DNA of 64,000 bases from a bacterium (lineage in GTDB: Bacteria; Auribacterota; Tritonobacteria; UBA1439), in NCBI GenBank assembly GCA_028716845.1, contig JAQUPF010000001.1:216167-280166 (forward strand). Direction: 5' to 3'. Position 1 is the stretch's first letter. Each line of letters opens with the position of its first letter. Shown here in pieces: positions 5,742 to 27,561 of the stretch. A model generated the notes under the pieces. That model made no database searches. It was not told where the DNA came from and saw only the letters and a list, made by a program, of their open reading frames with translations. The position numbers were made by a program, and so were the translations under genes.

Positions 5742-6683
5742 TTATAATTGTAAAGGGTTGACCCCGGGGGCCTTCCTGCTCCAGACCTCGGCGAGGACCG
5801 AGGCGGTGATCACGCACCAGGTCGCGAACAGGGCGCTCGGCAGCGCGGCTTCCGCCGAGAAGTGCTTGAGCGCGAGGACCGCCCCCAGGCCCGCGTTCTG
5901 CATCCCCACCTCCAGCGCGAGCGTGCGGCGCCGCTTCAGGTCGAAGCGGTAGAGCGCCCCCGCCGCGTAGCCGAGCAGGAGGCCGAGGGAGTTGTGGAGG
6001 ATGACCGCGGCGAAGATGAGCGCGCTCACGCGGGCGAGGTGGTCCCTGTTCAGGGCGACGACGAGGCCGCAGATGAAGGCGATGAAAAGCGCCGAGAGGG
6101 CCGGGAAGACCGCGGCGAACCCCCGTATCCGCTCGCGGAGGATCCCCTTGATCGCGAAGCCGGCGAGGAGCGGGACGATCACCATCTTGACGATGCTGAG
6201 GACCATCGGCCAAAACGGGATCTCAACGTAGGTCCGGCCGAAGACGGAGGTGCACAGCGGCGTGAGGACCGGCGCGAGGAGCGTCGAGACGCTCGTGAGG
6301 GCGATCGAGTACGCGACATCGGCCCGCGCGAGGTACGAGATCACGTTCGAGGCCATCGCGCCCGGCGCCGACCCGGTCAGGATGACGCCGAGGGCGAGGT
6401 CCGGCGGGAGGCGCAGCCCCCGCGCGACGAGGAACCCCGCCGCCGGCATGATGGCGAACTGGGCGAGCGTCCCCATGAGGACCGTGTGGGGCATCCTCGC
6501 CACGGGGGCGAAATCCGATGCGCGGAGGACCATGCCGATGCCGAGCATGGTGAGGGCGAACAGCCACTCGGTGTGGGGACGGAAGCCGGCGAGGAGGCCC
6601 GGCCGGAGGTACCCCGCGACGACCGCGAGGACCACCCAGAGGACGAGGAGCCGCGTGAACCGTCCGCACCACCTGTTGAACAT
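5742..6683 (-). CDS. Bile acid:sodium symporter (BASS) family transporter
   Basis: Track ORF, 313 aa polytopic membrane protein; EVGMQNAGLGAVLA motif typical of the BASS/ACR3-type fold. Confidence 0.7.
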   Translation of the reverse strand: MFNRWCGRFTRLLVLWVVLAVVAGYLRPGLLAGFRPHTEWLFALTMLGIGMVLRASDFAPVARMPHTVLMGTLAQFAIMPAAGFLVARGLRLPPDLALGVILTGSAPGAMASNVISYLARADVAYSIALTSVSTLLAPVLTPLCTSVFGRTYVEIPFWPMVLSIVKMVIVPLLAGFAIKGILRERIRGFAAVFPALSALFIAFICGLVVALNRDHLARVSALIFAAVILHNSLGLLLGYAAGALYRFDLKRRRTLALEVGMQNAGLGAVLALKHFSAEAALPSALFATWCVITASVLAEVWSRKAPGVNPLQL

Positions 6684-6778
6684 GGTTTCTCCCGAGGACC
6701 GCCGCCCGCGTCACGCCCCGAAACAAATGATTCCAAGGGGGTGACCGCGCGATGCGCGCCCGACCGGCGGCATGAACG

Positions 6779-8299
6779 TCATCGCAGGCGGTAGAGGGCG
6801 TACGTGTGGCGGATCTCCGGGGATTCGTACAGGGCGATGCGCTCATGCCCGGCCAGGAAATCCGAGACCACGGCGTCGTATTCCCCGCCGATATCGGTGA
6901 ACGCGACGTAGCGGAGCCCCTCCCTTTCCCTGAGCCGGCGCATCCTGTCCACGGCCGCCCTCCCCGCGGCGCCGTCTTTCCCCAGCCTCCCCTTCCACCA
7001 GCCGTAGCGGCGGGAGTAGTAGAGCACCTCCGGCCCCCAGCAGTCCGTGAAGAGCAGCTCTCCCTCGGGCACGCTCCTTCCGACCGTCCCCAGGAAATGC
7101 CACAGGTGCCAGTTCACGGGGTAGAAGCGCGCGAGCACCTCCCCGGCGGCGGCGCGGAGGGAGAGGCCGACGACGAGGGCGATCACCGCCCCCCTGCAGA
7201 GCGCGGATCCGCGGAAACGCGGGATCAGTGAGACGCAGGCGTCGAGGCCGCGGGCGAACATGAGGGCGAGCGGCGGGACGAAGGCGAGGAAGTAGTACTC
7301 GTGGAGGACGACGAAGAACGGGTACGAGTCCACCGCCGCGTAGAGAAACGCGGCGGCGAGCCACGCGAGGAACAGGCGGGCCCCCGATCCCTTTTCGCGC
7401 ATGAGGCAGGCGACGCCGGCCGCCGCGAAGAGCACGCCGAGGGGCGACAGCGAACAGCGGCCGAGGAAGACGGCGAGCGCCCCGAAGAACCGCCGGTCGA
7501 CCCACTGCACGTAATAGGCCGGCGACGACCAGTTCCTGAACGTGGCCACGCCGGGCGCGAATGTCTTCGGCAACTGGCCCGCGTTGAGCACGTGCATGTG
7601 GTAGAGGAACCATGCGGCGACCGCGACCGCCACGATGCCGCCGAGCGCCCAGAGCCGCGGCGCCAGGAACCCCCTGGGGCCCCGCCTCCCCGTAAGGTAG
7701 ACGGCCATCGGGATCACCAGGTACGCGTTCGGCGGATTGACCGCGAGGGCGAGCGCGCCGGCCGCCGCGGCCCACGCCATGCTCCGGCGGTCGCCCCTGT
7801 CGACGAACTCGGTGAACCAGTACAGCATCCCGACGGCGAGGAACATCGAGAAGCCCCCCTGCCGCATGAAGCACCGGCTGTAGAAGACGAAGAGCGGGCA
7901 GAGCGAGAAGAGGAGCGCCGAGAGGAGGCTCAGGCGGGCGGGGAAGAACTTCCTCGACAGTTGGAAAAAGAGGATGACCGCCCACAGGGCGAAGAGGATG
8001 CCCACGATCCTCCCCCATATCTCATTCACCCCCGTGAGGTGATAGAAGAGGGCGACGATGTAGGAGTAGAGGGGGAATTCCGGCAGGTTGGTCGTGCCCC
8101 CCCTCCCTGAGACGGTCTTCGGCAGGAGGAGGGAGTTCCGCTCCACGTAGTAGAGCCAGGACTGCATCGCCGTGAGGGTCTGGCGGTATGAATGGTTGTC
8201 AAGGAGCGGGGCGCGGAGGTGGTAGAGCCGTGGCAGGAGGCCGGCGACGAGGACGCCGCAGAGGAGCCACTTCTCGACCGAGCGGGGGACCGTCACCAC
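6779..8299 (-). CDS. GT-C superfamily membrane glycosyltransferase (ArnT/PMT-like), paralog 1
   Basis: Track ORF 506 aa; many TM segments, size and topology like ArnT/protein-mannosyltransferase-type enzymes; first 37 aa identical to paralog at 13107..14636. Confidence 0.7.
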   Translation of the reverse strand: MVTVPRSVEKWLLCGVLVAGLLPRLYHLRAPLLDNHSYRQTLTAMQSWLYYVERNSLLLPKTVSGRGGTTNLPEFPLYSYIVALFYHLTGVNEIWGRIVGILFALWAVILFFQLSRKFFPARLSLLSALLFSLCPLFVFYSRCFMRQGGFSMFLAVGMLYWFTEFVDRGDRRSMAWAAAAGALALAVNPPNAYLVIPMAVYLTGRRGPRGFLAPRLWALGGIVAVAVAAWFLYHMHVLNAGQLPKTFAPGVATFRNWSSPAYYVQWVDRRFFGALAVFLGRCSLSPLGVLFAAAGVACLMREKGSGARLFLAWLAAAFLYAAVDSYPFFVVLHEYYFLAFVPPLALMFARGLDACVSLIPRFRGSALCRGAVIALVVGLSLRAAAGEVLARFYPVNWHLWHFLGTVGRSVPEGELLFTDCWGPEVLYYSRRYGWWKGRLGKDGAAGRAAVDRMRRLREREGLRYVAFTDIGGEYDAVVSDFLAGHERIALYESPEIRHTYALYRLR

Positions 8300-8333
8300 G
8301 ATTCCTTCCTGCGGAGATTGTCCCGCGGGACCG

Positions 8334-9269
8334 CTATGAGAACAGGCCTATCCTCTCCTCGACGATATACGGGGGCCTGTTCTTCCCCTGGATGAACATC
8401 CGCCCGAGGTACTCGCCGATGATCCCCATGCAGAAGAGCTGGACGCCGCCGAGCAGCGTGATGAGGGCGGCGAGCGTCGCCCACCCCAGCACGGGCACCC
8501 CGCTGGTGACCTTCTGCACCATCACGACGGCGAAGTAGAGGATGCTCAGGGCCGCGACGACGAGGCCGGCGACCGAAATGAGCTTCAGGGGCTTCACGGA
8601 GAAGGAGAGGAGGGAGTCGAGGGCGAAGCCGAGCTGGCGCGCGAACGGGTATTTCGTGGTCCCGCGCCCCCTCCTGCCGGAGGCGACCGGGACCCTGGAG
8701 GTCGGGAAGTTGATGAGCCCAATGATGAACGTGATGCTGGGGTCGCGCTCGGAGAAACGGAGCAGCTCGTCGATCGTCCGCCTGCTGATGATCCTGAAGA
8801 GACTGGTCGTGAATTCGATCCTGTGGTCCGAGAGCGCGGCGATGAGCCGGACGAACGCGCGGGAGCACAGATTACGGAACCAGGTCTCGTTCTTCCGCTC
8901 CTTGACGCCGTAGACGACGTCGTACCCCTTCCGCATCTCGGCGTGGAGGGCGGCTATGTCCTCGGGGCGGTCCTGGAGGTCCCCGTCCATGATCACCGCG
9001 GCCCGGCCCGCCGCCTCCCGGAGCCCCGCCAGTATCGCGGCGTGATGCCCGAACCGGTTGGAGAGCTTGAGCGCCTTGAACCGCCGGTCCCGCGCGACGA
9101 GCTCACGGAGGCGGGGCACGGTCTCGTCGCTGTTGATGTCGGTGACGAAGATCACCTCCCATTCGCCCGCGAGACCCTCCAGGGCGCGGGTGAGCCGCGC
9201 GGAGAGCTCGGGGATGTTCTCCGCCTCGTCCCGGACCGGGATCACCACCGAGAGCTCCGCCATGGTCAT
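8334..9269 (-). CDS. Polyprenyl-phosphate sugar glycosyltransferase, GT2 family (ArnC/DPM1-like)
   Basis: C-terminal 311 aa of track ORF 8334..9860; start MTMAELSVVIPVRDEAENI; DGDLQD motif; two C-terminal TM helices; ATGA overlap with upstream acetyltransferase stop. Confidence 0.8.
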   Translation of the reverse strand: MTMAELSVVIPVRDEAENIPELSARLTRALEGLAGEWEVIFVTDINSDETVPRLRELVARDRRFKALKLSNRFGHHAAILAGLREAAGRAAVIMDGDLQDRPEDIAALHAEMRKGYDVVYGVKERKNETWFRNLCSRAFVRLIAALSDHRIEFTTSLFRIISRRTIDELLRFSERDPSITFIIGLINFPTSRVPVASGRRGRGTTKYPFARQLGFALDSLLSFSVKPLKLISVAGLVVAALSILYFAVVMVQKVTSGVPVLGWATLAALITLLGGVQLFCMGIIGEYLGRMFIQGKNRPPYIVEERIGLFS

Positions 9270-9910
9270 CGCCCCTCCCGTCCGGCCGGCGCGCCGGCGC
9301 GCATCTCGCGCGCCGGGACACCCGCCACGACGACGTTGTCGGGGACGTCGCGCGTCACGACGGCCCCCGCCCCCACCGTCGCCCCTTCCCCGACGGTCCT
9401 CCCCGGGAGGATCGTCGCGTTCGCGCCGACGTAGGCGCGGCGCCCGACCCTCGCTCCCCCGAGCAGCACGGCGCGCGGCGCGACGGTGGCGAAGTCCCCG
9501 ATCGACACGTCGTGCATCACGGTCGCGCCGACGTTGATGCGGACGAACTCCCCGATGGTGACGTTGCACGAGATGAAGGCGCCGCTCTGGAGGAGCACCC
9601 CCCTGCCGAGCGAACAGCGCGGCGAGAGCGTCGCGCCGGGCGAGACGAGCTCCGCGAACGCGAAGCCGTGCGCCTCGTAGGCGCGAGAGAGGTGCTCCCG
9701 CGCGGCGGGCGAGTCGGGGGAGATGAACACCGGGACGCCGGGGAGGCGCTCTCGGATCGCGGGGGCGTCGTCGTCGGAGCCGAGGACGGGGCAGCCGAGG
9801 TAGTCGCCCCGGAGCGCCCCGTCGATGATCCCGACCACGCGCCTGCCGCAGCGCGCGCACAGCTCGACGATCTCGTGGAACCCTCCAACAAGTATGAGGT
9901 CAGTTCCCAC
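9266..9910 (-). CDS. Hexapeptide-repeat sugar N-acetyltransferase (PglD/NeuD-like)
   Basis: Track ORF; N-terminal Rossmann-like region followed by left-handed beta-helix repeats (VGATVMHDVSIGDFATVAPRAVLLGGARVG...). Confidence 0.7.
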   Translation of the reverse strand: MGTDLILVGGFHEIVELCARCGRRVVGIIDGALRGDYLGCPVLGSDDDAPAIRERLPGVPVFISPDSPAAREHLSRAYEAHGFAFAELVSPGATLSPRCSLGRGVLLQSGAFISCNVTIGEFVRINVGATVMHDVSIGDFATVAPRAVLLGGARVGRRAYVGANATILPGRTVGEGATVGAGAVVTRDVPDNVVVAGVPAREMRAGAPAGREGR

Positions 9911-11036
9911 GGAGCGCCTCCTTGAATGATCGGATCACGTGCTCCTGCGCCTCCCCGCCGAGCCCGGCGTAGAGCGGCAGGGTGATCTCGCAGTCTGCCG
10001 CGTACTCGGTCAGGGGGAGCTCCGCGGGGAGGTGGCGGTAGATCGAGAAGCGGTGCACCGCCGGGTAGTGGACGCTCGTCGCGATCCCGCGCGCCTTGAG
10101 GGTCTCGCGCACGCGGTCGCGCCGCTCGCGCGTCGAACCATCGAGCACCACCGGGAAGATGTAGTTCGAGACGTATCCCCCGTGCTCCCGGAAGGGGATG
10201 ATGAGCCCCTCCGTGCCGCCGAGGCCGTCAAGGTAGCGGCGCCGCACCGCGGCCCGGTCCTCGATGTCCTCCCGGAGCCGCCCGAGCTGCACGAGACCCA
10301 GGGCGGCCCTGATGTCGTCGAGGCGGTAGTTGTAGCCGAGGTCGACCACGTCGTACGAGGTGCGGTGCCCCATCGCCCGCTCGTACGAGAGGCTGGTCAT
10401 CCCGTGCGATCGCAGGAGGCGCGCCCGCTCGCAATACTCCCGGTTGCCGGTGACGAGCATCCCCCCCTCCCCGGTGCTGATGTTCTTGTTGGAGAAGAAG
10501 CTGAAGCAGCCGATGTCGCCGATGGTCCCGAGCGCCCGGCCGCCGCAGTCGGAGAGGGGGGCGTGGGAGGCGTCCTCGATGACGCCGAGGCGGCGCCGCC
10601 GGGCGATCTCCATGATCCGGCCCATCGCGCAGGGGAAGCCGGCGTAGTGCATGACCACCACCGCCCTCGTCCGCTCCGTGACGAGCCGCTCGAGACGGAC
10701 GGGATCGAGCGTGAGGTCATCCGTTCCTGCGATGTCGCAGAAGACCGGGACGGCGCCCACGTACCGGATCGCGTTCACCGTGGCGACGAAGGTGAGGGAG
10801 GGGGTGATGACCTCGTCCCCCTCGCCGAGGCCGAGGAGCCGGCACGCCATGTGCAGGGCGGCCGTGCAGTTCGTCACGCCGACGGCGTGGGGCGCGCCGA
10901 CCATGGCGGCGAACCGGCGCTCCAGCTCCTCGGTGACGGGACCGGTGGAGATCCACCTCGACCGGAGGACGCGCACGACGGCCTCCTCCTCCTCCGGTCC
11001 GTAATTCAGGTCGAAGAGCGGGATCGTGTAGCCCAT
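9900..11036 (-). CDS. DegT/DnrJ/EryC1/StrS-family nucleotide-sugar aminotransferase
   Basis: Track ORF 378 aa; PLP-enzyme signature FSFFSNKNISTGEGGMLVT and overall DegT-like architecture. Confidence 0.85.
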   Translation of the reverse strand: MGYTIPLFDLNYGPEEEEAVVRVLRSRWISTGPVTEELERRFAAMVGAPHAVGVTNCTAALHMACRLLGLGEGDEVITPSLTFVATVNAIRYVGAVPVFCDIAGTDDLTLDPVRLERLVTERTRAVVVMHYAGFPCAMGRIMEIARRRRLGVIEDASHAPLSDCGGRALGTIGDIGCFSFFSNKNISTGEGGMLVTGNREYCERARLLRSHGMTSLSYERAMGHRTSYDVVDLGYNYRLDDIRAALGLVQLGRLREDIEDRAAVRRRYLDGLGGTEGLIIPFREHGGYVSNYIFPVVLDGSTRERRDRVRETLKARGIATSVHYPAVHRFSIYRHLPAELPLTEYAADCEITLPLYAGLGGEAQEHVIRSFKEALRGN

Positions 11037-11058
11037 GCCCCCCCACCGCCGCGGGAGA

Positions 11059-12042
11059 TCAAACCTCGTACCGGTCGGGACGGTACCGATGTCGGTTCTC
11101 CCTGATCCAGTCGATCGTCTCGCGGAGCCCGGCCTCGAGATCGTAGCGCGGCTCCCACCCGGTCGCCGCCTTCAGCCGGCGGTTGTCGGCCCTGAGCCGT
11201 TCCACCTCCCCCTCCTCCGGCCGCACCCGCGCCGGGGCGAGGACGATCCGCGCCTCCGCCCCCATGAGACGGGCGATCATGCGGGCGAGGTCCCCGACGG
11301 AGATCTCCTCGTCCATCCCGATGTGGACCGCCTCGCCGATAAAGCCGGGCGCGTCATGCGCCGCCAGGAAGCCGTCCACGGTGTCCCGCACGAACGTCAG
11401 GTCCCTCGTCGGCGCGAGGTTCCCCAGCCGGATCTCCCGCGCCCCCGCGAGGAGCTGGATGATGATCGAGGGGATCACGGCGCGCGCCGACTGCCGCGGC
11501 CCGTACGTGTTGAACGGCCGGACGATCTTCACCGGCAGGCCGAACGATCGGTGATAGCTCAGGGCGAGCTGGTCCGCGGCGACCTTGGTGGCGGCGTACG
11601 GCGAACGGGCGTCCGGCGGCTGCCCCTCTCCGATCGGGACCGTCCGGACGTTCCCGTACGTCTCGCTGGTCGAGGTCACGAGCACCTCCCCCGTCCCGCA
11701 CTCGAGGGCCGCCTGCAGGACGTTGTAGGTCCCCTCGACGTTCGTCCGCACGTAGGCCAGCGGCGAGACGTACGAGTACGGGATCCCGATGAGCGCGGCG
11801 AGGTGGAACACGGCGCCGCAGCCGCGCGCCGCCCGCAGCACGGCGTCGTAGTCGCGGATGTCGCCCGCGACCACCTCCAGTTCATTCCGGCAGGGGACGT
11901 CGTCGAGCCAGCCCCACGAGCCGCCGCCGACGTACCGCACGAAGGCGCGGACGCGCATCCCCATCGCCACGCACCGCTCCACGAGGTGCGAGCCGATGAA
12001 GCCCCCGGCCCCCGTGATGAGGACCATCCCGTCGGCGCTCAT
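11059..12042 (-). CDS. NAD-dependent nucleotide-sugar epimerase/dehydratase (SDR family)
   Basis: Track ORF; TGAGGFIGSHL Rossmann motif and Y-x3-K (SPYAATKVAADQL). Confidence 0.8.
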   Translation of the reverse strand: MSADGMVLITGAGGFIGSHLVERCVAMGMRVRAFVRYVGGGSWGWLDDVPCRNELEVVAGDIRDYDAVLRAARGCGAVFHLAALIGIPYSYVSPLAYVRTNVEGTYNVLQAALECGTGEVLVTSTSETYGNVRTVPIGEGQPPDARSPYAATKVAADQLALSYHRSFGLPVKIVRPFNTYGPRQSARAVIPSIIIQLLAGAREIRLGNLAPTRDLTFVRDTVDGFLAAHDAPGFIGEAVHIGMDEEISVGDLARMIARLMGAEARIVLAPARVRPEEGEVERLRADNRRLKAATGWEPRYDLEAGLRETIDWIRENRHRYRPDRYEV

Positions 12043-12737
12043 GGCTCCTCGAAGTGCGTCTTCACGATCTCGTGCGCCCTCTCGTAGTCGCTGACCCGTC
12101 CGATGTCAAGCCAGTACTCCGCGAGCTCGTACTTCATGACGGGCATCTCCCGCTCGAGCATGGTCCTGATCAGCGCGTCCATGCCGAAGTAGGTCCCGTC
12201 CGGGATGAGATCGAGTATGCCGGGCTTCATGACGTAGATGCCCGCGATGATCCAGGTGATGATCTCCGGCTTCTCCTGGATCCCCGTCACGCGGTCCCCG
12301 GAGAAGAAGATGTTGCCGAAGGCGAACGGGAGAATCTCCTTCTTGATGGCGATGGTGAGGAGCGAGTCCGCGGAGAGGCCGAACGCGTACAGCTTCCCGA
12401 AATCGGCCAGGGTGAGGATGTCGCCGTTCATCAGGATGAACGGCTCTGCGAGGCGGTCCCGGAGGAGCGAGAGAGGCCCCGCCGTCCCCAGCGGGACATC
12501 CTCCCTGCTCACGCTGAGCCTGACCCCGTACCGCGAGCCGTCCCCGAAGAACTTCTCGATGTAGTCGGACTTGTAGTTGGTGGTGAGGATGATCTCATCG
12601 AACCCGAATTTCCTGAGGCGATCGATCTGAATCTCGAGGACCGATTTCTCCCCCACCGGAAGGAGGGGCTTGGGGATGACCGAGGTGAACGGTTTGAGGC
12701 GCGTGCCGAGGCCCCCCGCGAGAATGATCGCCTTCAT
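12039..12737 (-). CDS. Sugar-phosphate nucleotidyltransferase
   Basis: C-terminal 232 aa of track ORF 12039..13049; start MKAIILAGGLGTRLKPFT (G-x-G-T-R-L motif); GGAGGGGAG RBS before ATG 12737; 4-bp overlap with epimerase start. Confidence 0.75.
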   Translation of the reverse strand: MKAIILAGGLGTRLKPFTSVIPKPLLPVGEKSVLEIQIDRLRKFGFDEIILTTNYKSDYIEKFFGDGSRYGVRLSVSREDVPLGTAGPLSLLRDRLAEPFILMNGDILTLADFGKLYAFGLSADSLLTIAIKKEILPFAFGNIFFSGDRVTGIQEKPEIITWIIAGIYVMKPGILDLIPDGTYFGMDALIRTMLEREMPVMKYELAEYWLDIGRVSDYERAHEIVKTHFEEP

Positions 12738-12750
12738 CTCCCCTCCGTGT

Positions 12751-12808
12751 CCGTGGCAGATTATATCGTGCCGGCTCCCGCGGAGGCGAGCGGAAATCCG
12801 CCCGCGGC
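12751..12808 (-). promoter_or_regulatory. Conserved promoter/operator-like element, copy 1 (imperfect palindrome + 15 nt + TATAAT)
   Basis: Blocks CCGTGGCAGATTATAT and GGAGGCGAGCGGAAATCCGCCCGCGGC shared with 14719..14776; on the coding (minus) strand a TATAAT hexamer lies about 20 nt upstream of the nucleotidyltransferase ATG. Confidence 0.35.
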
Positions 12809-12822
12809 ACGGGGCCGCCCGA

Positions 12823-13083: not shown

Positions 13084-13106
13084 TTCCGCATCGGTGAGGA
13101 ACGGCG

Positions 13107-14636: not shown

Positions 14637-14703
14637 GATTCCTTCCCGCCCCGGCTTCCCCGCTGCTCGGTCATGAGAATCGGCCTCTCACCGTTGTGGG
14701 GGC

Positions 14704-21226: not shown

Positions 21227-21290
21227 CTCTCTTTCAGCTCGTCGTTCGTACTTCGTACATCGTACATCGCAAACAGAGGTTAATCCACAC
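21098..21290. repeat. About 190-bp duplicated segment spanning GT2 5' coding end, RBS and upstream hairpin, copy 1
   Basis: Near-identical to 22161..22353 (a few mismatches over about 190 bp, constant offset 1063). Confidence 0.7.
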
Positions 21291-21305
21291 AGTACGATGT
21301 ACGAA

Positions 21306-22289
21306 TCAGCGCCGGAACGGCAATGAAAAGACCGACTTCACCGCGCGCCACGCCCGCTGGACGGCGGAGCCGACCTTCCAGGCCTTGGAGGCGTACACCG
21401 ACCGGAGTTCGTGCTCGCGCTCATCGAGCAGGCGGCGGAGCTCGCCGGGCTCGCCCCTGTTCAGCGCGGTCTCCAGCTCCCGTATGTAGCGGTGCGCGTC
21501 GTCGTGGTGCCCCAGCAGCCAATCGAGCTCCTCCTCCCGGTGCCGCCAGTAGAGGCGGTACTCGCCGAGCAGCCGGTCCTTGCCGCGGATGACCTCGAGG
21601 GCGTGCTCCCGGAACGACGCGGCGTGCCTGGCGATGATCCGGTCCATGATCTCGCCCCGGTACTCGGGGCTGTTGCTCCGGTGGTGCTTCCCCCCCTCCC
21701 TGATCCTGTACCGGAAGAGGAACTCCTCCAGGACGTGCGCGCGGTACCCCCGCTCGAGGATGCCGATCCAGAAGTCCCAGTCCTCGTACCCCGGCAGCGT
21801 CTCGTCGTATCCCCCCACCTCCTCCCACGCCTTCCGCCTGAACAGCGAGGCGGTGCAGGCGCGGTTGTCGACGAGGAAATCGGCGAGCGTCGCGGAGTCC
21901 GGGTCGACCGTGCCGGGCTTGTCGCCGAAGAAGGTGTACCAGAACGTCACGATCCCCACGCCCGGGTCTCCGTTCATGACGGCGCCCGTCTTCTCGAGGC
22001 ACGCCGGCTCGAGGAGGTCGTCCGGGTCGAGGCAGCAGACGTACTCGCCGGAGGACAGCGAGATGCCGTGGTTCCTCGCCGCCCCCGCCCGCTTCCGCTC
22101 CGTGGCGACGACCCTCGTCTTCGGCCGCCGGTAGTCCGCGAGGAGGGCGTTGGTCTCCTCGTCGGTCGAGCCGGGATTCACGACGATGATCTCGAAGTCC
22201 CGCATCGTCTGCGCGAGGACGGAGCCCACCGCCTCGTCCAGGTACCGGCCGAGGTTGAAGCAGGGGATGATCACGCTGACTTTGGGCAT
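21306..22289 (-). CDS. GT2 family glycosyltransferase, paralog of the N-terminal domain of 19181..21226
   Basis: Track ORF 21306..22358; ATG at 22289 gives MPKVSVIIPCFNLGRYLDEAV..., nearly identical over the first about 60 aa to the downstream tandem GT2. Confidence 0.8.
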   Translation of the reverse strand: MPKVSVIIPCFNLGRYLDEAVGSVLAQTMRDFEIIVVNPGSTDEETNALLADYRRPKTRVVATERKRAGAARNHGISLSSGEYVCCLDPDDLLEPACLEKTGAVMNGDPGVGIVTFWYTFFGDKPGTVDPDSATLADFLVDNRACTASLFRRKAWEEVGGYDETLPGYEDWDFWIGILERGYRAHVLEEFLFRYRIREGGKHHRSNSPEYRGEIMDRIIARHAASFREHALEVIRGKDRLLGEYRLYWRHREEELDWLLGHHDDAHRYIRELETALNRGEPGELRRLLDEREHELRSVYASKAWKVGSAVQRAWRAVKSVFSLPFRR

Positions 22290-22353
22290 CTCTCTTTCAG
22301 CTCGTCGTTCGTACTTCGTACATCGTACATCGCAAACAGAGGTTAATCCACAC
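22161..22353. repeat. About 190-bp duplicated segment, copy 2
   Basis: See 21098..21290. Confidence 0.7.
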
Positions 22354-22403
22354 CGCACCCAGAACGAAGTACGAAGTACGATGTACGATGTACGAAGTAC
22401 GAA
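22308..22403 (-). promoter_or_regulatory. Perfect 25-bp inverted repeat (GTAC-rich) with 46-nt loop in the leader of the GT2 gene
   Basis: Arm TTCGTACTTCGTACATCGTACATCG (22308..22332) is the exact reverse complement of 22379..22403; a shorter 14-bp version precedes the next GT2 gene (about 21253..21305). Confidence 0.5.
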
Positions 22404-22409
22404 CCGTAT

Positions 22410-25091
22410 TCATCTGGATCGGGCCATCTCCATGAACCGGAAGAGCCGGAGGAGGTAGCCGGCGTCGTGGAGGAGGAGGCCCTTCTTCTCGAAGATTTCG
22501 GCGTCGTCCTCGCCGGCCCGCCTCGCCGCCCGGAAGGCCCGGAGGCTCCTTCCGAGCCGCCGCGGTCCGTGGCCGATGACGAAACCCAGGCCGAACATCT
22601 TCCGGTGCATGAGGGCGTCCGAGTACCCCCCCCAGAACGCCTTGCGCATGACGTACTTCCTGTTCAGCCGCTCCGGGTCCACGAAGTGGTAAATGACGGC
22701 GTCCGCGGTGTAGTAGATCCTGTAGCCGTTCCTCGAGAGGAAGAAGTTGAGGAGCGTCTCCTCCCCCTGGTAGAGGCGCTTCCCCGTCCGCCCCAGCCGG
22801 CCGTGGAAGCGGGCCCAGGGAAGGTTCAGGAGCTCCTTCCGGTAACAGGAATTCCCCCCGCCGAGGTAGTCGGGGTGCTGGATGCGGATGACCCGCTCCG
22901 GCCGCCCGCGCCGCTCGTAGTCGAGGCCGTAGAAGCCCCAGACGTACGGGGTGTCGAACCAGGGCGGGAGATCGAAGCCCTCGACGGGGACGGGCACCAC
23001 CTTCCCCCCGACGACGTCGGCATGGAATCGCCGGATCGTCTCGTCGAAGGCGGCGAGCCAGCGGCGGTCCGCCGCGGCGTCGTCGTCCAGGTAGGCGACG
23101 AGGTCGTACCTCGAGTGCCGGATGCCCGTGTTCCGCGCGTTCGAGAGGCCGAGGACCGGCTCGAAGCAGTACCGGAAGGGGACGGGGGACGCCTCCCGGA
23201 GGGCGGCGGCCGTCTCGCGGGTGGCGTCGGCGCTGCCGTTGTCCACGACGATGATCTCGTAGCGGTCCCGCGGGTAGTCCAGGGCGAAGAGCGACTCGAC
23301 CGCCTTCCTGAGGTAGTCCGCGCGGTTGTGCGTGCAGACGATGACGGAGAAGCCGCCCGGGCCCGTCGACGACGCCGGCATGGAGAACGGCTCCCGCAGT
23401 TCGAGCGGCCCGATCCCCACGGCGCCGTCGGACGACCCTTCGACGGCCTCCCGGCGCAGCGTGACCGGGTCCAGGAGACCCACGTGGGCGGTGTAGCTCG
23501 CGCGGGGGATGGTTTCGATGAACAGGTCGTCCCTGCAGGCGAGCCCCCGCTTCCATCGCCGGGTCCCGCCGATGGGGGCGTGGTCGAGGTTGAGGAACCC
23601 GACGGATCTCCTCTCTTCCGGCAGCGCGCCGGGATCGTCCGGGTAGAGGTGCGTGAAGACGAGGAAATTGTCGCGGGGCTTCCGGTGCGGGAGGAAGAAG
23701 AGCGTGAGGACGCGGTTCCGCTCCGTCCAGCCGAGGAGGGTGACGGGGCCGATCCGGGCGTTCACCGGGTGGGCGATTTCGGCCCACGCCTCCGCGGGCG
23801 GGAGGGCGCCCCGGCCGCGCGCCGCCTTCGCGCGCCCCTCCCTCCACTCGCGCAGGAACGCCCTCGGCCTCAGGAAGACGCCCCCCGAGCGCCGCAGGCA
23901 GCCGAGGAGCCTCGCGCCCTTGCGGGCGGCCGTGGAGAGGCCGTCCCGCGGGCGGACGAGAGCGCCGAGGAAGTCGCGCGCGAGGGCGCCGAGGTGCCGG
24001 AGCGCGGCCGGACGCCCCTCGCCATCGACCTTCGAGACCGCCTCCGCCATCCCCTCCTCGTATGAGCGCCGCAGGGAATGCCGCCTCGCCGCCCCGGGCG
24101 CCACCCCCTCCCCCGCGGCGAAGACGCGGAGGAGCCGCTCCGGGTCGGGATCCTTCATGGAAACCTGCCTGTTGAATATCAGATCGTGGAGGAACCGGTC
24201 CCGCAGATCGCGGTCGACCTCGAATCGCCGCGCCGCCGGCAGGTCGTAGTTGAATACCCCCTCCTTGCCGGAGCCGATCCCCCGCCCCAGGTAAGTGACC
24301 GGCTTGTCGAAGAGGAGGGCCTCGAGCAGGACGGTGGAGTTGATCCCCACCACGCACCCGCACCGGGCGAGGGAGTCCCTGAGGTCGCCCCCCTCCTCGA
24401 CCCGGACGCCGGGGATCTCCTCCCCGAGGCGGAGGAGGCGCTCCTTGTCGGGATCGAGCGGGTGGCACCTGCACACGATCTCCTCGCCGGGGAGGGCGGA
24501 GGCCATGTGCCGGACGAACGCCGCCATGTCCCTCCAGGGCGAGAACTGCACGATGTTCATGTCATCCGCGATCTGGAGGGGGCAGAAGACGAAGCCGTCG
24601 TCCCCGATGGCGCGCCCGCCGCGGTACCCGCTCCTGAACGCCTCGAGGGCCGGGCGGTCCAGCGGCAGACGCCGCACCTCGGCCGCGGTCATCTCCGCAA
24701 TGCTTGAATCGGCGTTGATCCCCCGCCCGTCGAAGTAGACGTGCTCCCGCTGGGGGAACCAGCCGGCCTCGGCGTAGACGACCCCGCACGCCGGGAGCTC
24801 CTCCCGGATGAACCGGAGCGGCCGCTCGTAGAGCGGATGGTGCTTGTTCCAGCAGAGGACCCTCGACGGCCGGATCCCGGCGAGGATGCGCTCGAGGGCC
24901 TCCCCGCCGAACTCCTCCTCGCCGAGCCGGCGGAAACGGTACGGGGCCAGGATCTCGAGGTCCCCCTCCGCGAACAGCCAGCAGTAGAAGCCGTGGATGC
25001 GGAAGGAACCGCCCAGGATCCGGAGACAGTTCGCCAGGAAGCGGGCGGAATGCTCCGTGCAGGTGTCGAGAACCACGAGATCCGGTTTCAT
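22410..25091 (-). CDS. Fusion protein: capsule-polysaccharide-biosynthesis-like N-terminal domain + C-terminal GT2 glycosyltransferase
   Basis: Track ORF 893 aa; N-terminal half resembles KpsC/LpsZ-type capsule synthesis proteins (FVFCPLQIADDMNIVQFSPW...GINSTVLLEALLFDKPVTYLG); C-terminal GT2 core FSVIVCTHNRADYL...DNGSAD...DDDA. Confidence 0.65.
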   Translation of the reverse strand: MKPDLVVLDTCTEHSARFLANCLRILGGSFRIHGFYCWLFAEGDLEILAPYRFRRLGEEEFGGEALERILAGIRPSRVLCWNKHHPLYERPLRFIREELPACGVVYAEAGWFPQREHVYFDGRGINADSSIAEMTAAEVRRLPLDRPALEAFRSGYRGGRAIGDDGFVFCPLQIADDMNIVQFSPWRDMAAFVRHMASALPGEEIVCRCHPLDPDKERLLRLGEEIPGVRVEEGGDLRDSLARCGCVVGINSTVLLEALLFDKPVTYLGRGIGSGKEGVFNYDLPAARRFEVDRDLRDRFLHDLIFNRQVSMKDPDPERLLRVFAAGEGVAPGAARRHSLRRSYEEGMAEAVSKVDGEGRPAALRHLGALARDFLGALVRPRDGLSTAARKGARLLGCLRRSGGVFLRPRAFLREWREGRAKAARGRGALPPAEAWAEIAHPVNARIGPVTLLGWTERNRVLTLFFLPHRKPRDNFLVFTHLYPDDPGALPEERRSVGFLNLDHAPIGGTRRWKRGLACRDDLFIETIPRASYTAHVGLLDPVTLRREAVEGSSDGAVGIGPLELREPFSMPASSTGPGGFSVIVCTHNRADYLRKAVESLFALDYPRDRYEIIVVDNGSADATRETAAALREASPVPFRYCFEPVLGLSNARNTGIRHSRYDLVAYLDDDAAADRRWLAAFDETIRRFHADVVGGKVVPVPVEGFDLPPWFDTPYVWGFYGLDYERRGRPERVIRIQHPDYLGGGNSCYRKELLNLPWARFHGRLGRTGKRLYQGEETLLNFFLSRNGYRIYYTADAVIYHFVDPERLNRKYVMRKAFWGGYSDALMHRKMFGLGFVIGHGPRRLGRSLRAFRAARRAGEDDAEIFEKKGLLLHDAGYLLRLFRFMEMARSR

Positions 25092-26299
25092 CGGCTCCGG
25101 CCCTCATCCCGCCCCCGGGGCGGGCCGTTCCAGCCCTGAGTGTACCAATTGGAGGTGGATCGATAAAGGGAGGGATGTGCGCCCCCGGCGGCCGCCCCGG
25201 CAAGCCGGCGGAGCAGGTCGTGCAACCGCTCCGCCGCCGCCTCGGGCGAAAAGCCCTCCGCCGCCTTCCGCCGGCCGTACTCGCCCATCCTCGCCCGCGC
25301 GGCGGGGTTCCGGCGCAGAAAATCGAGGCGCTCCTCCCACTCCGCGGGCGTGGCCGCGATGAATCCGTTCAGGCCGTCCTCGACATACTCGGCATACGCC
25401 GGCACGGGGCTCGCGACGACCGGCAGCCGCATGGAGTTGCAGATGACCGCCTTGTGCGGCGGCTTCGCCAGGGCGAAGGGGCAGTCCGTGAAGAGGGGGG
25501 CGATCCCCGCATGGGCGCGCGACATGAGGCCCGCGATCGAGTCCATCCCCCAGACGTGGAACTCCGCGATCTCCCCCAGGATCATCTCCGCGAGTTTCCT
25601 GTTGCTCTTCGTGCCCATGAACTCGTTCCGCCGCTCCTCCGTCGTGGCGACGAGCACCCTGACCGGGGCCCGGCGGGCGATCCTCCGTATCGCCTCCGCG
25701 CAGACGAGCAGGTAGGGCAGGTTGTCGCTGCACCCCTCCCAGACCAGCGTCATGCCCCGATCGGCGCTCTCCGCGGCGGCCGGCGGCGGATGGTACACGT
25801 CCGTGTCGATCGAATCGTGGATCACCTCCACGGGAAGCGAGGGGGCGAGGCGCGCGATCGCCTCCGCCTGCAGCCGCGAGCCCGCGACCACGTGCGGCCG
25901 GCACTGTTCGAGGAACGCGATGAGGCGGCGCCAGTGATCGGGCGGGAACGGCCGCGCGGTCCCGGTGTAGGCGGCGTAGTGGTGCGCGCGGGAGGGGGCT
26001 TCGTATCCCAGGAGGTCGGAGAACGAGAACACCAGCGCTGCCCCGTGCCTCCCGAGACGCGCGGCGTTGCGGAGCCAGAAGCCGTAGTCGCGGTCCTGCG
26101 AGAAGATGACGTCGGCCGGCGTGCCGAGCGCCTCCTCTTTCCCCGAGAAGACGCACTCGACGCCGCGCCTGCGGAGGCAGCGCGCCGGGAGGACCATCCG
26201 CCGGCGGTCCGACGGGTTCCCGAACGGGTCGTCGCTCAGGGGGACGAAGAGAACGCGCAGGGGCCGCGCCCCCCCCGCGGGGCCCGCGCGTTCCGTCAC
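25088..26299 (-). CDS. GT1/GT4-like glycosyltransferase
   Basis: Part of track ORF 25088..26923; GTG at 26299 overlaps the upstream stop (GTGA); C-terminal region resembles glycosyl transferase group 1 (PLFTDCPFALAKPPHKAVICNSMRLPVVASPVPAYAEYVEDGLNGF). Confidence 0.55.
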   Translation of the reverse strand: MTERAGPAGGARPLRVLFVPLSDDPFGNPSDRRRMVLPARCLRRRGVECVFSGKEEALGTPADVIFSQDRDYGFWLRNAARLGRHGAALVFSFSDLLGYEAPSRAHHYAAYTGTARPFPPDHWRRLIAFLEQCRPHVVAGSRLQAEAIARLAPSLPVEVIHDSIDTDVYHPPPAAAESADRGMTLVWEGCSDNLPYLLVCAEAIRRIARRAPVRVLVATTEERRNEFMGTKSNRKLAEMILGEIAEFHVWGMDSIAGLMSRAHAGIAPLFTDCPFALAKPPHKAVICNSMRLPVVASPVPAYAEYVEDGLNGFIAATPAEWEERLDFLRRNPAARARMGEYGRRKAAEGFSPEAAAERLHDLLRRLAGAAAGGAHPSLYRSTSNWYTQGWNGPPRGRDEGRSR

Positions 26300-27561
26300 C
26301 GGAGCGCCTCCGCCAGCGCCGCGTCCAGGTCGCGGTACACGGTCCCGGCCGACATCCTGCGGGCCATGAGCGCGCGCGCCCTCGCGGCGACCTCGGCCCG
26401 CAGCGCCGGCGAATCGAGGAATCGGAGCACCTCGCGCGCGAATTCTTCGTCGTCCCGCGCGACCGCGCAGTGCACGCCCGCCTCGCACTCGATCCCCTCC
26501 GCGCCGACGGGCGTCGTGACGACCGGAACGCCGTGCGCCATCGCCTCGAGCACCTTCATCTTCACCCCGCCCCCGGCGGCGACGGGCGCGATGAAGATCC
26601 TGCCGGAGGCGATGAACGCCGCTGACGACGGGACATATCCCTCGAGGCGCACGCCCGTATCCTTGAAGGCGTTCCCGATCTCGGGCGACTGCGCGACCCG
26701 GCCCGCGACGGCCACGGTGAGCGAGGGGCGCGCCGCGACCAGGCGCGGGAGTATCCGTTCCCGGAACAGGAGCAGGGCGAGGCGGTTCGCCTCGTTGTCC
26801 GCCCCCAGGAAGACGAGGTCGTGGCGCGGCTCCCCGCTCCCCGCCCGCGGGAGGGGGACCTCGACCGGCACGGCGCACAGCCGCGCCCCCGGCAGCTCCC
26901 GCCGGAGTACCGCCTCGTCCCACCGGCTGATTGCGAGCACGAGGTCGTATCGCCGCATGACCGACAGCTCGAGCGCCTTCTCCCCCGCGATATCGGACGG
27001 CGCGCCGGCCCGGAAGGGATCCAGGCGCGATTCCCGCACGTACTGGATGTCGTGCGTGTCGAGGATCATCAGGGGGCGGCGCCGGCGGCCCGGGACCCCC
27101 TCCACGCAGGGGCTCATCCAGACGTAGGAGACGAGCACAACGTCGTACGCGCGGTCACGGAGGAGCGCCCGCACGTGACGGGCGAGCGCGCTTCCGGCGT
27201 ACCGCTCCATCCGGGCGCTCACGAGGCTCGGATGCGGCTTCGGCGCGGCGGCGCCGGGCGCGTCCATCCGCCGGAAGCGGCCCCGGACGCGCTTCGCCAG
27301 GGCGCCGGCCGCCGTCCGCGCGCGCCCGAGAACGGAGGCGCCGGCCGGACCGGGGGCGGCTTCGGGGATGTGGACCGCCGAGAGGAGCCTCGCGTCCTCC
27401 CCCCAGAACCGGGCGTCGCGCGAGCCGGCCGGACAGGCGAACTCGACCTCCCAGCCGAGATCCCCGGCGAAATGCCGCAGGAGGCGGCTCGCGCGCACCT
27501 GCGCGCCGTTCGTGACCGGATGAGTCGTCGACGGGAACAGGTAGAGCAGTCTGGTAGCCAC
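26296..27561 (-). CDS. GT4 family glycosyltransferase (group 1)
   Basis: Track ORF 421 aa; C-terminal GT-B signature GGGVKMKVLEAMAHGVPVVTTPVGAEGI. Confidence 0.75.
   Translation of the reverse strand: MATRLLYLFPSTTHPVTNGAQVRASRLLRHFAGDLGWEVEFACPAGSRDARFWGEDARLLSAVHIPEAAPGPAGASVLGRARTAAGALAKRVRGRFRRMDAPGAAAPKPHPSLVSARMERYAGSALARHVRALLRDRAYDVVLVSYVWMSPCVEGVPGRRRRPLMILDTHDIQYVRESRLDPFRAGAPSDIAGEKALELSVMRRYDLVLAISRWDEAVLRRELPGARLCAVPVEVPLPRAGSGEPRHDLVFLGADNEANRLALLLFRERILPRLVAARPSLTVAVAGRVAQSPEIGNAFKDTGVRLEGYVPSSAAFIASGRIFIAPVAAGGGVKMKVLEAMAHGVPVVTTPVGAEGIECEAGVHCAVARDDEEFAREVLRFLDSPALRAEVAARARALMARRMSAGTVYRDLDAALAEALR

Follow-up and report, generated by a model that had tools for sequence, protein, structure and literature searches.

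In the Arn pathway (ArnBCADTEF), which modifies lipid A with L-Ara4N, the sugar is attached by ArnT. RgtA-D attach galacturonic acid, and rgtA-E reportedly form an adjacent set of genes encoding several GT-C transferases and one ArnC-like synthase. Multiple GT-C genes occur in rgtABC(D)/rgtE as well as in aftA-embCAB. The mycobacterial arabinogalactan cluster contains glfT1/glfT2, ubiA/dprE, aftA-embC-embA-embB and Rv3781/3783. An outline of this cluster is given in PMC11127046, which also describes O-antigen loci in which cytoplasmic glycosyltransferases occur together with a terminator of the methyltransferase type and with a three-component GT-C system for side chains, the initiating enzyme WecA often being encoded elsewhere. 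In three-component systems (GtrA/GtrB/Gtr* of Shigella and Salmonella; ORF15/ORF14/ORF12 of Citrobacter youngae O1/O2, GT136) the gene for the GT-C is adjacent to that for the polyprenyl-phosphate sugar synthase (PMC11127046). The pgfS-pgfM1-pgfE-pgfM2 operon of Streptococcus mutans encodes a GtrB-like glycosyltransferase, an epimerase and two paralogous PMT_2 proteins, and proteins are only partly glycosylated once the second PMT_2 paralog is lost (PMC5856776).

An earlier note on the DNA analysed here regarded the combination of several GT-C paralogs with a methyltransferase in such a locus as undescribed. This was an overstatement, because loci with multiple GT-Cs and a GtrB-like enzyme are known (pgf; Rgt; the arabinogalactan cluster of mycobacteria; O-antigen three-component systems).

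Gene arrangement and cytoplasmic enzymes

The locus occupies positions 5742-27561 of the window, i.e. the whole 64 kb stretch of DNA that was analysed; its uncultured host is probably a PVC-affiliated diderm. GC3-based gene calling and Pfam searches gave 16 co-directional genes on the minus strand (g1 to g16), fewer than the "about 20" counted before. The four 4-bp start/stop overlaps cited in the earlier note are real (GTGA at 26296-26299; ATGA at 25088-25091, 12039-12042 and 9266-9269), a further overlap of 11 bp links g12 and g13 (9900-9910), and all functions it had named for the genes were borne out, that of the possible fourth GT-C included. The arrangement is not due to chance, because the order is kept in the related metagenome contigs L001, L030 and L035/L036. 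In L035/L036 the g10-g15 block is collinear (57-76% identity) and lies directly behind g3-like and g8-like genes. In three related contigs the start of a g8-like gene overlaps the stop of a g3-like gene by 4 bp, and g8-like genes in related contigs are always accompanied by multi-domain GT2 genes and methyltransferases. L001 and L030 possess homologs of g10/g11, a g8-like gene and a PMT_2 gene; the part of these contigs that was read contained no DegT, hexapeptide or GtrB gene.

The first gene of the block, g1 (26296-27561), encodes a GT4 (GT-B) glycosyltransferase (Pfam Glyco_trans_1_4, E 6e-20) and is joined to g2 by the GTGA overlap. g2 (25088-26299), which has a 4-bp overlap at either end, encodes another GT4 enzyme (Glyco_trans_1_4 and Glycos_transf_1, both barely over the cut-offs). 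The g3 product (22410-25091; 893 aa) combines an N-terminal Capsule_synth domain (KpsC/KpsS/WbbB-like) with a C-terminal GT2 domain (Pfam, E 4.5e-28). g4 (21306-22289; GT2, E 1e-25) shares 50% identity with the N-terminal half of g5; its start was revised to the ATG at 22289, based on a start context equal to that of g5 and on a GC3 that climbs only past 22298. g5 (19181-21226) encodes a protein of 681 aa with two GT2 domains (E 7e-66) and has homologs in L001, L030, L032 and L035 (46-59% identity). g1-g5 thus provide seven cytoplasmic glycosyltransferase domains (two GT4, the KpsC/WbbB-like domain fused to GT2, one GT2 and the double GT2). The product of g6 (17803-19161) is a SAM methyltransferase (Methyltransf_11, E 5e-19; residues 221-376) with an N-terminal part that matches no assigned domain; its true start is probably M62 (18978); GC3 is weak upstream of about 18800.

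In g3 a KpsC/WbbB-like domain is fused to a polymerising glycosyltransferase domain, and in g6 a methyltransferase is accompanied by an additional domain. Both traits are shared with the WbbB- and WbdD-type chain terminators of ABC-transporter-dependent O antigens and are typical where a terminator controls glycan synthesis in the cytoplasm. The similarity is weak, however: PF05159 reached 23.9 bits (cut-off 20), and the only match of g3 residues 1-570 among PDB sequences was the WbbB beta-Kdo transferase (5fa0, E 0.12), in an alignment spanning the HP-motif region. A coiled-coil ruler, a kinase domain and a Wzt with a carbohydrate-binding module, known from WbbB/WbdD systems, were not found.

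The g3-g4 spacer contains a minus-strand hairpin (22305-22404) with a perfect stem of 28 bp (RNA fold, -54.8 kcal/mol, z = -6.05) and no Rfam match. The g4-g5 spacer contains a shorter version (about 21244-21300), and across the 64 kb the arm motif is confined to these two spacers. Gene relics and no intact gene fill the 369-nt gap at 12738-13106. A repeat search identified two relics on the minus strand at 12751-13094: the g6 C-terminus recurs there in truncated form, and behind it come 58 nt that duplicate the 3' end of g8 and include GATATAAT. The 24-mer core of this 58-nt element occurs only twice in the window. The g6-derived ORF (12823-13083) matches g6 residues 367-452 with 65% protein and 75% DNA identity. 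L035 carries a comparable relic of 82 aa in the same position, and L001 a relic of the C-terminal domain of g7. These relics, together with the duplications, show that genes have been gained and lost in the locus.

Nucleotide-sugar cassette and GT-C proteins

g10 (12039-12737) encodes a short sugar-1-phosphate nucleotidyltransferase of 232 aa (NTP_transferase, E 4e-36). Its start was corrected from 13049 to the ATG at 12737, which is preceded by GGAGG; PDB matches begin at residue 105 of the longer ORF. g11 (11059-12042) is an SDR of the NDP-hexose 4,6-dehydratase type (best PDB match TDP-glucose 4,6-dehydratase 1r66, E 3e-43), and g12 (9900-11036) a DegT-family sugar C4 aminotransferase (E 4e-104) with ArnB (E 7e-66) and perosamine synthases (E 6e-58) as best PDB matches. 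g13 (9266-9910) is a left-handed beta-helix (hexapeptide) N-acetyltransferase closest to PerB (E 4e-34) and VioB (E 2e-28), whose substrates are 4-amino-4,6-dideoxyhexoses. The cassette product is therefore most likely an NDP-4-acetamido-4,6-dideoxyhexose and not L-Ara4N. The next gene, g14 (8334-9269), encodes a GtrB/ArnC-type polyprenyl-phosphate glycosyltransferase with full-length PDB matches to GtrB (5ekp, E 7e-58) and ArnC (E 6e-46) and two C-terminal TM helices. In NCBIfam both PgfS, the best match (207.7 bits against an equivalog cut-off of 500), and ArnC stayed under their equivalog cut-offs. We lean slightly towards the view that the sugar loaded by g14 is the product of g10-g13 and not a common UDP-sugar, against which counts the composition of L001 and L030 as far as these were read.

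The Arn-type logic proposed earlier is the best reading of 12737-6779 (cassette, polyprenyl-phosphate GT2, GT-C), but this does not extend to the Arn pathway itself. Shared features are an ArnB-type C4 aminotransferase, an ArnC-like GT2, an ArnT-like GT-C fold, N-acylation of the amino sugar ahead of lipid transfer, and overlapping genes on a single strand. The pathway was nevertheless ruled out because the locus lacks an ArnA-type decarboxylase/formyltransferase and an ArnD-type deacylase, and also because g11 is closest to dTDP-glucose 4,6-dehydratases and g13 to PerB/VioB. In other words, a hexose 4,6-dehydratase takes the place of ArnA in forming the precursor and an acetyltransferase that of the formyltransferase; ArnE/F are likewise missing, and all matches stayed below equivalog cut-offs.

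The polytopic proteins proved to be GT-Cs as the earlier note had supposed: Pfam identified PMT_2 in g7, g9 and g15, and g8 and g15 both yield GT-C folds in which the first loop past TM1 contains an invariant Asp. Paralogy, which the note had suggested for several of them, holds only for g9 and g15. g9 (13107-14636; E 1.4e-18) and g15 (6779-8299; E 1.7e-15) are 53% identical over their full length, whereas g7 (16215-17783; 38.4 bits, cut-off 26.1), with at least seven hydrophobic segments, gave no BLAST match to either, and the four GT-Cs represent three unrelated sequence families. None matched the NCBIfam ArnT model. g15 closes the conserved cassette and has an ortholog in the same position in L035 (57% identity). 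Foldseek with its AF2 model (pLDDT 79.8) matched STT3, ArnT and AglB (ArnT TM 0.61/0.58), and the invariant residue is D34. The ortholog of g9 in L037/L038 (72% identity) has another gene context, behind a TPR protein gene in what seems to be one operon. g8 (14704-16107) belongs to a large family without annotation and was assigned by fold. ArnT is the closest solved structure, by size and fold, to both g15 and g8; it tops the g8 matches, and lipid-monophosphate monosaccharides are the donors for most of the top 20, with no WaaL or SEDS structures among the best. An invariant Cys pair in the long loop of g8 fits an extracytoplasmic location.

The last gene, g16 (5742-6683), encodes an SBF/BASS-family transporter (Pfam SBF, E 1e-37). 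Although on the same strand it is probably outside the glycan system: it is missing from related loci, which have rpsB-tsf at their end instead.

Possible function of the locus

The explanation that we prefer, with about even confidence, is that the seven cytoplasmic glycosyltransferase domains and the methyltransferase build a surface glycan or glycolipid which is decorated outside the membrane by GT-Cs using lipid-phosphate sugars. Going by domain content, g1-g5 would assemble the glycan on a lipid carrier at the cytoplasmic face, where g6 would methylate it. The donor would be made from hexose-1-phosphate by g10-g13 in four steps (nucleotidylyl transfer, 4,6-dehydration, C4 transamination and N-acetylation); the families are established and the chemistry is predicted from them. 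After transfer of a sugar to polyprenyl phosphate by g14 and flipping, g15, g9, g7 and g8 may add lipid-phosphate-linked sugars at differing positions of the exported glycan on the outer face. The GT-C step would then be a post-polymerisation decoration of the kind known from three-component O-antigen systems and from cell-wall glycosylation. There may also be several acceptors, as the earlier note suggested, possibly proteins or lipids. The exporter and the transferase that initiates synthesis would be encoded outside this locus: the 64 kb contain no genes for Wzm/Wzt, KpsMT, Wzx, Wzy, a WaaL-like protein or a phosphoglycosyltransferase and none for a GtrA-, ArnE/F- or MATE-type flippase, so that export and flipping are assumed. 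Distant g8 homologs, which are solitary genes amid housekeeping genes in no glycan context, count against this explanation, as does the weak Capsule_synth/WbbB signal of g3.

As in the mycobacterial cluster, a bifunctional GT2 would polymerise in the cytoplasm before elaboration on the extracellular side by several GT-Cs, supplied with a polyprenyl-phosphate sugar by a cluster-encoded synthase. The mycobacterial donor is, however, PRPP-derived arabinofuranose, the GT-Cs belong to GT53, GT85 and other families, an ABC exporter lies within the cluster, and phylum and envelope are unrelated. Three-component systems too lie within glycan loci with nucleotide-sugar genes, cytoplasmic glycosyltransferases and a methyltransferase. 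They differ in having one GT-C where this locus has four, one of them from an unannotated family, and in using Glc, Gal or pentofuranose and not the N-acetylated 4-amino-4,6-dideoxyhexose predicted here; neither the locus nor the 64 kb contains their GtrA/MATE flippase or an ABC transporter.

It is unlikely that the locus serves protein O-glycosylation of the Pgf/PMT type, in which g15, g9 and g7 would transfer the lipid-phosphate sugar of g14 to Ser/Thr-rich regions of secreted or membrane proteins, the PMT_2 paralogs acting sequentially or on separate substrates. The PgfS match of g14, the TPR gene ahead of the g9 ortholog and a core like that of pgf (GtrB-like enzyme, nucleotide-sugar tailoring enzyme and two paralogous PMT_2 proteins in one operon; PMC5856776) speak for it, but the PgfS score is far below its cut-off. 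Moreover, the Gram-positive operon has four genes and an adjoining substrate gene, whereas this locus has 16 and no candidate substrate gene; seven cytoplasmic domains and a methyltransferase would be superfluous in a monosaccharide system, and g8-like genes are translationally coupled with a cytoplasmic glycosyltransferase gene in relatives. The same seven domains would be left unexplained if the GT-Cs placed lipid-phosphate-linked sugar on various positions of lipid A or the LPS core. We consider such an Arn- or Rgt-like modification very unlikely despite the ArnB and ArnC matches of g12 and g14, the resemblance of g15 and g8 to ArnT and the rgtA-E precedent: an ArnA-like enzyme and the ArnT model match are missing, and no cationic group is formed because no deacylase unmasks the amine.

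A further reading concerns g8, and perhaps g7, as an en-bloc transferase, ligase or polymerase that moves the polyprenyl-diphosphate-linked g1-g5 glycan to its final anchor in place of a WaaL-, Wzy- or oligosaccharyltransferase-type step. It would suit the overlap with g3-like genes in three relatives, the g8-like loci whose sequence, as far as it was read, has no GtrB-like gene, and a locus in which no other ligase or polymerase is evident; the GT-C_A structural class spans monophosphate- and diphosphate-donor enzymes (PMC10920833). The donor class is, however, not readable from fold alone, and the ArnT-like structural profile of g8, the lack of WaaL/SEDS among its best matches and the solitary distant relatives make this role improbable.

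With regard to the preferred surface-glycan explanation, the overall logic, sugars on a lipid carrier attached outside the cell membrane, is already known. Unusual are the lack of a flippase, exporter or initiating transferase in the 64 kb, the relics of gain and loss, the want of a characterised homologous locus, and the presence of four GT-Cs of three families, one from a large unannotated family. The product would vary among related strains as GT-C and methyltransferase genes are gained, lost or converted.

Gene content and flanks of the locus

The G+C content of the window is approximately 70%, so open reading frames are plentiful, and real genes were picked with a third-position G+C filter combined with a Pfam scan. 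By these means the glycosylation locus at 27561-5742 proved to be real and to have been read correctly in the earlier note, except that it comprises 16 minus-strand genes (g1 to g16) instead of about 20. At the four 4-bp overlaps cited in that note the junction reads GTGA or ATGA, and a further overlap, of 11 nt, joins g12 and g13. According to Pfam, g1 and g2 encode GT4 enzymes, g3 a protein of 893 aa with a Capsule_synth-like region and a GT2 domain, g4 a GT2 enzyme, g5 a protein with two GT2 domains and g6 a SAM methyltransferase whose N-terminal part has no assigned domain. Four genes encode membrane transferases, of which g7 (16215-17783), g9 (13107-14636) and g15 (6779-8299) all pass the gathering score of PMT_2 and g8 (14704-16107) has no Pfam match. 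A sugar cassette (12737 down to 9266) consists of a nucleotidyltransferase (g10), an SDR dehydratase (g11), a DegT aminotransferase (g12) and a hexapeptide acetyltransferase (g13). It adjoins g14 (8334-9269), a GT2 enzyme with two C-terminal transmembrane helices, and the last gene, g16, encodes an SBF transporter.

Two start codons were corrected, that of g10 to ATG 12737, which is preceded by GGAGG (the part of the open reading frame further upstream has the wrong codon-position G+C), and that of g4 to ATG 22289, which has the same context as the start of g5. The start of g6 is probably Met62. Spacers within the locus are shorter than 110 nt, with the exception of a 369-nt relic region between g9 and g10. 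The genes on either side are housekeeping or unrelated genes, namely those for a metallo-beta-lactamase-fold protein, RlmN, GreA, SmpB, PFOR, RecR and DnaX on one flank and those for a TSP3/GDSL fragment, a TPR protein, a NUDIX hydrolase and a sigma factor on the other.

A scan of 5400-17900 for promoters and terminators yielded no more than expected by chance, and Rfam gave no match anywhere in the window. At its listed start, 27581, the divergent open reading frame of the metallo-beta-lactamase-fold protein comes within 19 nt of the start of g1. Because the stretch 27562-27700 is AT-richer and looks non-coding, the true start of this gene probably lies further downstream and the stretch is likely to hold the promoter of the locus. 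The low-GC spacer before g4 harbours a hairpin (22305-22404, minus strand) with a perfect stem of 28 bp, an RNA folding energy of -54.8 kcal/mol and a z-score of -6.05, and a truncated, shorter copy is located before g5 (approximately 21244-21300). The 26-nt arm motif occurs at no other place in the 64 kb, and the hairpin is without a match in Rfam. A role in processing or stability is conceivable, as is attenuation of the duplicated GT2 genes g4 and g5.

Four GT-C transferases of three sequence families

It is unusual that four GT-C enzymes belonging to three sequence families lie within 11 kb. Also unusual are the donor sugar that is predicted, the lack of a flippase and an exporter in the 64 kb, and the very large but unannotated family of g8. 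Moreover, as far as sequence comparison can tell, the locus appears to have no characterised homolog, all NCBIfam matches being far below the equivalog cut-offs.

The protein encoded by g8 has a GT-C fold and a polytopic membrane topology. The fold-search matches of its model include STT3B, Pmt2, GPI mannosyltransferase I, GAB1/PIG-U, PglB, AftA, PimE, ALG3, AftB, AftD, ALG9, ALG6 and DPY19. GAB1/PIG-U are subunits of the GPI transamidase and are not known glycosyltransferases. A conserved acidic residue is typical of the first extracytoplasmic loop of GT-C enzymes; in g8 it is D34 of the motif YTDTGTY, invariant in 44 sequences and placed by the model in the first loop that follows TM1, with helix 2-19/21-26 before it and helix 35-44 after it. 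D122, H160, R419 and a cysteine pair in the long loop (C245/C253) are also invariant, the latter being consistent with an extracytoplasmic location of this loop. On the strength of the fold matches, D34 and the cysteine pair, g8 is the fourth GT-C enzyme that had been suspected at 14704-16107.

By sequence g8 does not belong to any existing GT-C family model in Pfam, NCBIfam or the PDB. None of the 44 family members matches a GT-C family of Pfam, none matches NCBIfam, a search of the PDB with the family profile gave nothing relevant, and hhalign aligned the g8 and g15 families with a probability of 9.6%. The family itself is large: an exhaustive profile search of clusters formed at 50% identity recovered 6,379 representatives at E <= 1e-3 and 3,292 at E <= 1e-30. 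In the public NCBI annotation g8 is a 'hypothetical protein' of 437 aa starting 30 codons downstream of the likely GTG start, whereby TM1 and the beginning (WPAFFNGYPL) of the N-terminal motif of the family are lost. A single-protein scan of GTDB genomes detected 28 distant homologs with about 30% identity, mostly in Roseomonas/Acetobacteraceae. No other gene of the locus was found within 10 kb of these homologs, which are solitary among housekeeping genes, after pgsA-moaE, so that their context provides no functional clue.

The PMT_2 proteins g9 and g15 are paralogs with 53% identity over the full length, g7 gave no BLAST hit with either of them, and sequence searches of the PDB with g7 and g9 were empty. 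A model of g15 built from eight sequences (pLDDT 79.8) matched STT3, ArnT and AglB, the best match of similar size being ArnT (TM 0.61/0.58). D34, directly after TM1, is invariant in the small g15 family. Structure prediction, proposed earlier as a check of the membrane proteins, thus returned a GT-C fold for both g15 and g8. The start of g15 is 34 nt past g14 and the pair is also kept in the related metagenome contig L035; g15 is thus a GT-C transferase encoded together with a synthase, as in three-component systems.

The first 46 residues of g9 and g15 are nearly identical, and the 5' ends of the genes including the upstream 40 nt (8043-8342 and 14380-14679) share 79% DNA identity. In view of the much lower overall identity and of separate orthologs in other contigs, this pattern suggests gene conversion of the 5' ends. 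The true ortholog of g9 (72%) is located elsewhere, in the metagenome loci L037/L038. There it is preceded by an open reading frame of 178 aa (L038 9468-10004; L037 1749-2285) with a weak CHASE2 call, whose C-terminal 43 residues are 65% identical to the C-terminus of g14 and which looks like the relic of a GtrB-like gene joined to another reading frame. TPR and GDSL/TSP3 proteins adjoin both the locus (3617-5604 of the window) and the g9 ortholog (L038 5733-9463), and in L037/L038 the TPR gene and the GT-C gene seemingly form one operon. The TPR protein may be functionally linked to the PMT_2 enzymes.

Predicted donor sugar and comparison with known systems

The solved structures most closely related to the cassette proteins are short sugar-1-phosphate nucleotidyltransferases for g10, TDP-glucose 4,6-dehydratase for g11 (E 3e-43; UDP-GlcA decarboxylases follow at about 1e-30, and the signal for GDP-mannose dehydratase among the PDB matches was not strong), ArnB (E 7e-66) and perosamine synthases (E 6e-58) for g12, and PerB (E 4e-34) and VioB (E 2e-28) for g13. 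PerB and VioB both N-acetylate 4-amino-4,6-dideoxyhexoses. Taken together, these relationships make an NDP-4-acetamido-4,6-dideoxyhexose, of which the nucleotide and the C4 configuration are not readable from sequence, the most likely product. By homology g14 is a polyprenyl-phosphate glycosyltransferase: it matches GtrB (5ekp) over residues 4-309 (E 7e-58) and ArnC (E 6e-46) end to end, its GT2 catalytic domain being followed by a C-terminal transmembrane hairpin (segments 233-251 and 266-284). Judged only by position, that is by the 4-bp overlap with g13 and the collinearity of g10-g15 in L035, it probably loads the cassette product on polyprenyl phosphate.

Pfam revealed no GtrA, ArnE/F-like or MATE flippase, either in the locus or in the rest of the 64 kb. 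Likewise, no ABC transporter of the Wzm/Wzt or KpsM/KpsT type was present in the 64-kb window of the 397-kb contig, and no initiating phosphoglycosyltransferase, Wzx, Wzy or WaaL-like protein in the 64 kb. The only other membrane protein of the locus, the SBF transporter g16, was considered as the missing flippase, but as none of the related loci has this gene, the idea was discarded. As to initiation, WecA is commonly unlinked in O-antigen systems (PMC11127046).

The logic of the locus is that of three-component periplasmic glycosylation (PMC11127046) combined with cytoplasmic polymer synthesis. Synthase and GT-C are matched by g14 and g15, whereas the dedicated flippase gene has no counterpart in the locus or the 64 kb. 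The Arn-type logic invoked earlier holds insofar as a polyprenyl-phosphate GT2 adjoins a GT-C (g14 and g15), but the locus does not encode the Arn pathway. There is no counterpart of ArnA, which combines a UDP-GlcA C4 oxidative decarboxylase with an N-formyltransferase: g11 is nearest to TDP-glucose 4,6-dehydratase and no formyltransferase domain occurs in the locus. ArnD and ArnE/F are also lacking, Pfam finding no polysaccharide-deacetylase or EamA/SMR-type genes, and g14 scores 164.9 bits with the ArnC equivalog NF007986 against a cut-off of 529. Several GT-C enzymes together with one lipid-sugar synthase are encoded by rgtA-E of Rhizobium and in the mycobacterial aftA-embCAB region. The same arrangement is found in pgfS-pgfM1-pgfE-pgfM2 (PMC5856776), so the view that the architecture of the locus had not been described was overstated. 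The classes of GT-C enzymes and their donor types have been summarised (PMC10920833).

Related loci, gene turnover and possible function

The window proteins (NCBI MDD55558xx) are singletons at 90% identity in the protein collection, and exact look-ups on contigs gave no match. DnaX is 55-60% identical to proteins of MAGs labelled Chlamydiota/Chlamydiae and about 42% identical to those of Verrucomicrobiae, Kiritimatiellia and Omnitrophota, from which the host may tentatively be placed in a PVC-affiliated uncultured lineage. Parts of the locus recur in four related metagenome contigs. L035/L036 carries, in this order, a double GT2, a Capsule_synth-GT2, a g8-like gene, an 82-aa relic of the g6 C-terminus, homologs of g10-g15 (57-76% identity) and rpsB-tsf. 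L001 and L030 possess GT4/GT2 genes, methyltransferases, a Capsule_synth-GT2, a g8-like gene and homologs of g11 and g10, with a divergent PMT_2 on the opposite strand. L032 has a double GT2, a GT2-GT4 fusion, a polytopic protein of 507 aa and a g8-like gene. As far as the relatives were read they contain two GT-C genes each, and the four in the window are the largest count seen. The 507-aa protein (L032 5950-7473) has no Pfam match and a 615-aa polytopic protein (L038 2207-4054) no Pfam hit on record; both may be further unannotated GT-C-like enzymes.

The 369-nt gap between g9 and g10 (12738-13106) is composed of relics. A truncated copy of the g6 C-terminus, an 86-aa open reading frame at 12823-13083 (65% protein and 75% DNA identity with g6), is followed by a 58-nt copy of the g8 3' end, which carries GATATAAT just upstream of g10. 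The original of this element belongs to the non-conserved tail of g8 and precedes g9, so the element may be an internal promoter put to use a second time. The 86-aa frame was also considered as a small gene, for instance for a GtrA-like flippase, and dismissed as it has no transmembrane segment and is the truncated g6 copy. Elsewhere g4 duplicates the first half of g5, L001 retains a relic of a g7-like C-terminus, and the G+C content falls to 0.64-0.66 at 12-14 kb and 16-20 kb of the window. These relics, duplications and G+C dips, together with the displaced g9 ortholog, point to a locus family that turns over its GT-C and methyltransferase genes, as is typical for surface-glycan loci.

A scan of metagenome DNA with a g11 motif, a very general pattern, matched at least 120 stretches, of which 80 loci were analysed without encountering a further syntenic locus. 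The longer ones mostly had the common g10-g11 pair and some also g12 and g13. Homologs of g7, g8, g9 and g15 were found in none of the 80, and matches to g14 were weak at best, so the combination of cassette and GT-C genes is not general. The pair of short nucleotidyltransferase and SDR is a very common environmental two-gene module (L039-L118). A second SDR often accompanies it, and in some cases DegT and hexapeptide genes do, but no GT-C related to those of the window.

What might such a locus do? We give an even chance to cytoplasmic assembly of a surface glycan that is subsequently decorated by GT-C enzymes with lipid-linked sugars. The observations behind this model are the domain content of the genes, the GT-C fold of both g8 and g15, the kinship of g14 with GtrB and ArnC, and the synteny with related contigs; because of the absences in the 64 kb, export and flipping are assumed. 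On the cytoplasmic side of the membrane the products of g1-g5, including the multi-domain cytoplasmic glycosyltransferases g3 and g5, would assemble a glycan carried by a lipid, which g6 would methylate and might thereby terminate. Chain termination by g6 or by the N-terminal region of g3 is suggested only by weak similarity, the latter region resembling the KpsC/KpsS/WbbB beta-Kdo transferases at 23.9 bits (PF05159) and E 0.12 (WbbB). Machinery encoded elsewhere would export the glycan, g14 would put a sugar, probably the cassette product, on polyprenyl phosphate, and the four GT-C enzymes would add lipid-linked sugars at different sites. Protein O-glycosylation of the Pgf type is an unlikely alternative to this surface-glycan model. 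PgfS is the best NCBIfam match of g14, but with 207.7 bits against a cut-off of 500; g9 and g15 are PMT_2 paralogs like those of the pgf operon, and no gene for a Ser/Thr-rich secreted substrate is evident inside the locus. Decoration of lipid A or core as by Arn or Rgt enzymes would also employ such a synthase, and we regard it as very improbable; the ArnT models of NCBIfam match none of g7, g8, g9 and g15.

The role of g8 can be read in other ways. In three relatives (L001, L030 and L035) the g3-like gene ends in a 4-bp overlap with the g8-like gene that comes after it. We regard it as unlikely that g8 acts on a diphosphate-linked glycan, as an en-bloc transferase, ligase or polymerase. A broader reading, itself doubtful, is that g8 founds a new, widespread GT-C family (about 6,400 clusters at 50% identity, with no sequence relative in Pfam, NCBIfam or the PDB) which in this lineage is translationally coupled to a KpsC/WbbB-like-GT2 polymerase. 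It would then perform a step undescribed for GT-C enzymes, such as handover or anchoring of a cytoplasmic glycan without the usual Wzx/Wzy/WaaL or ABC-transporter parts, while g14, g15 and g9 would use a lipid-phosphate-linked 4-acetamido-4,6-dideoxyhexose. To our knowledge this donor class has not been reported for GT-C enzymes.

Lipid-phosphate sugars and GT-C enzymes in periplasmic glycosylation are a main source of surface-glycan diversity, and enzyme families of this process are still being discovered, GT136 having been founded in 2024. The locus overturns no concept. As a compact natural case of one lipid-sugar synthase accompanied by four GT-C enzymes from three families, it lends itself to studies of acceptor specificity and of diversification by gene gain, loss and conversion. 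Its main interest lies in the g8 family and in the predicted lipid-linked 4-acetamido-4,6-dideoxyhexose: polyprenyl-P-4-acetamido-4,6-dideoxyhexose would be a new lipid-linked donor, a prediction that is testable, and the confident fold assignment of g8 could improve the annotation of thousands of genes of its family now called 'hypothetical protein'.
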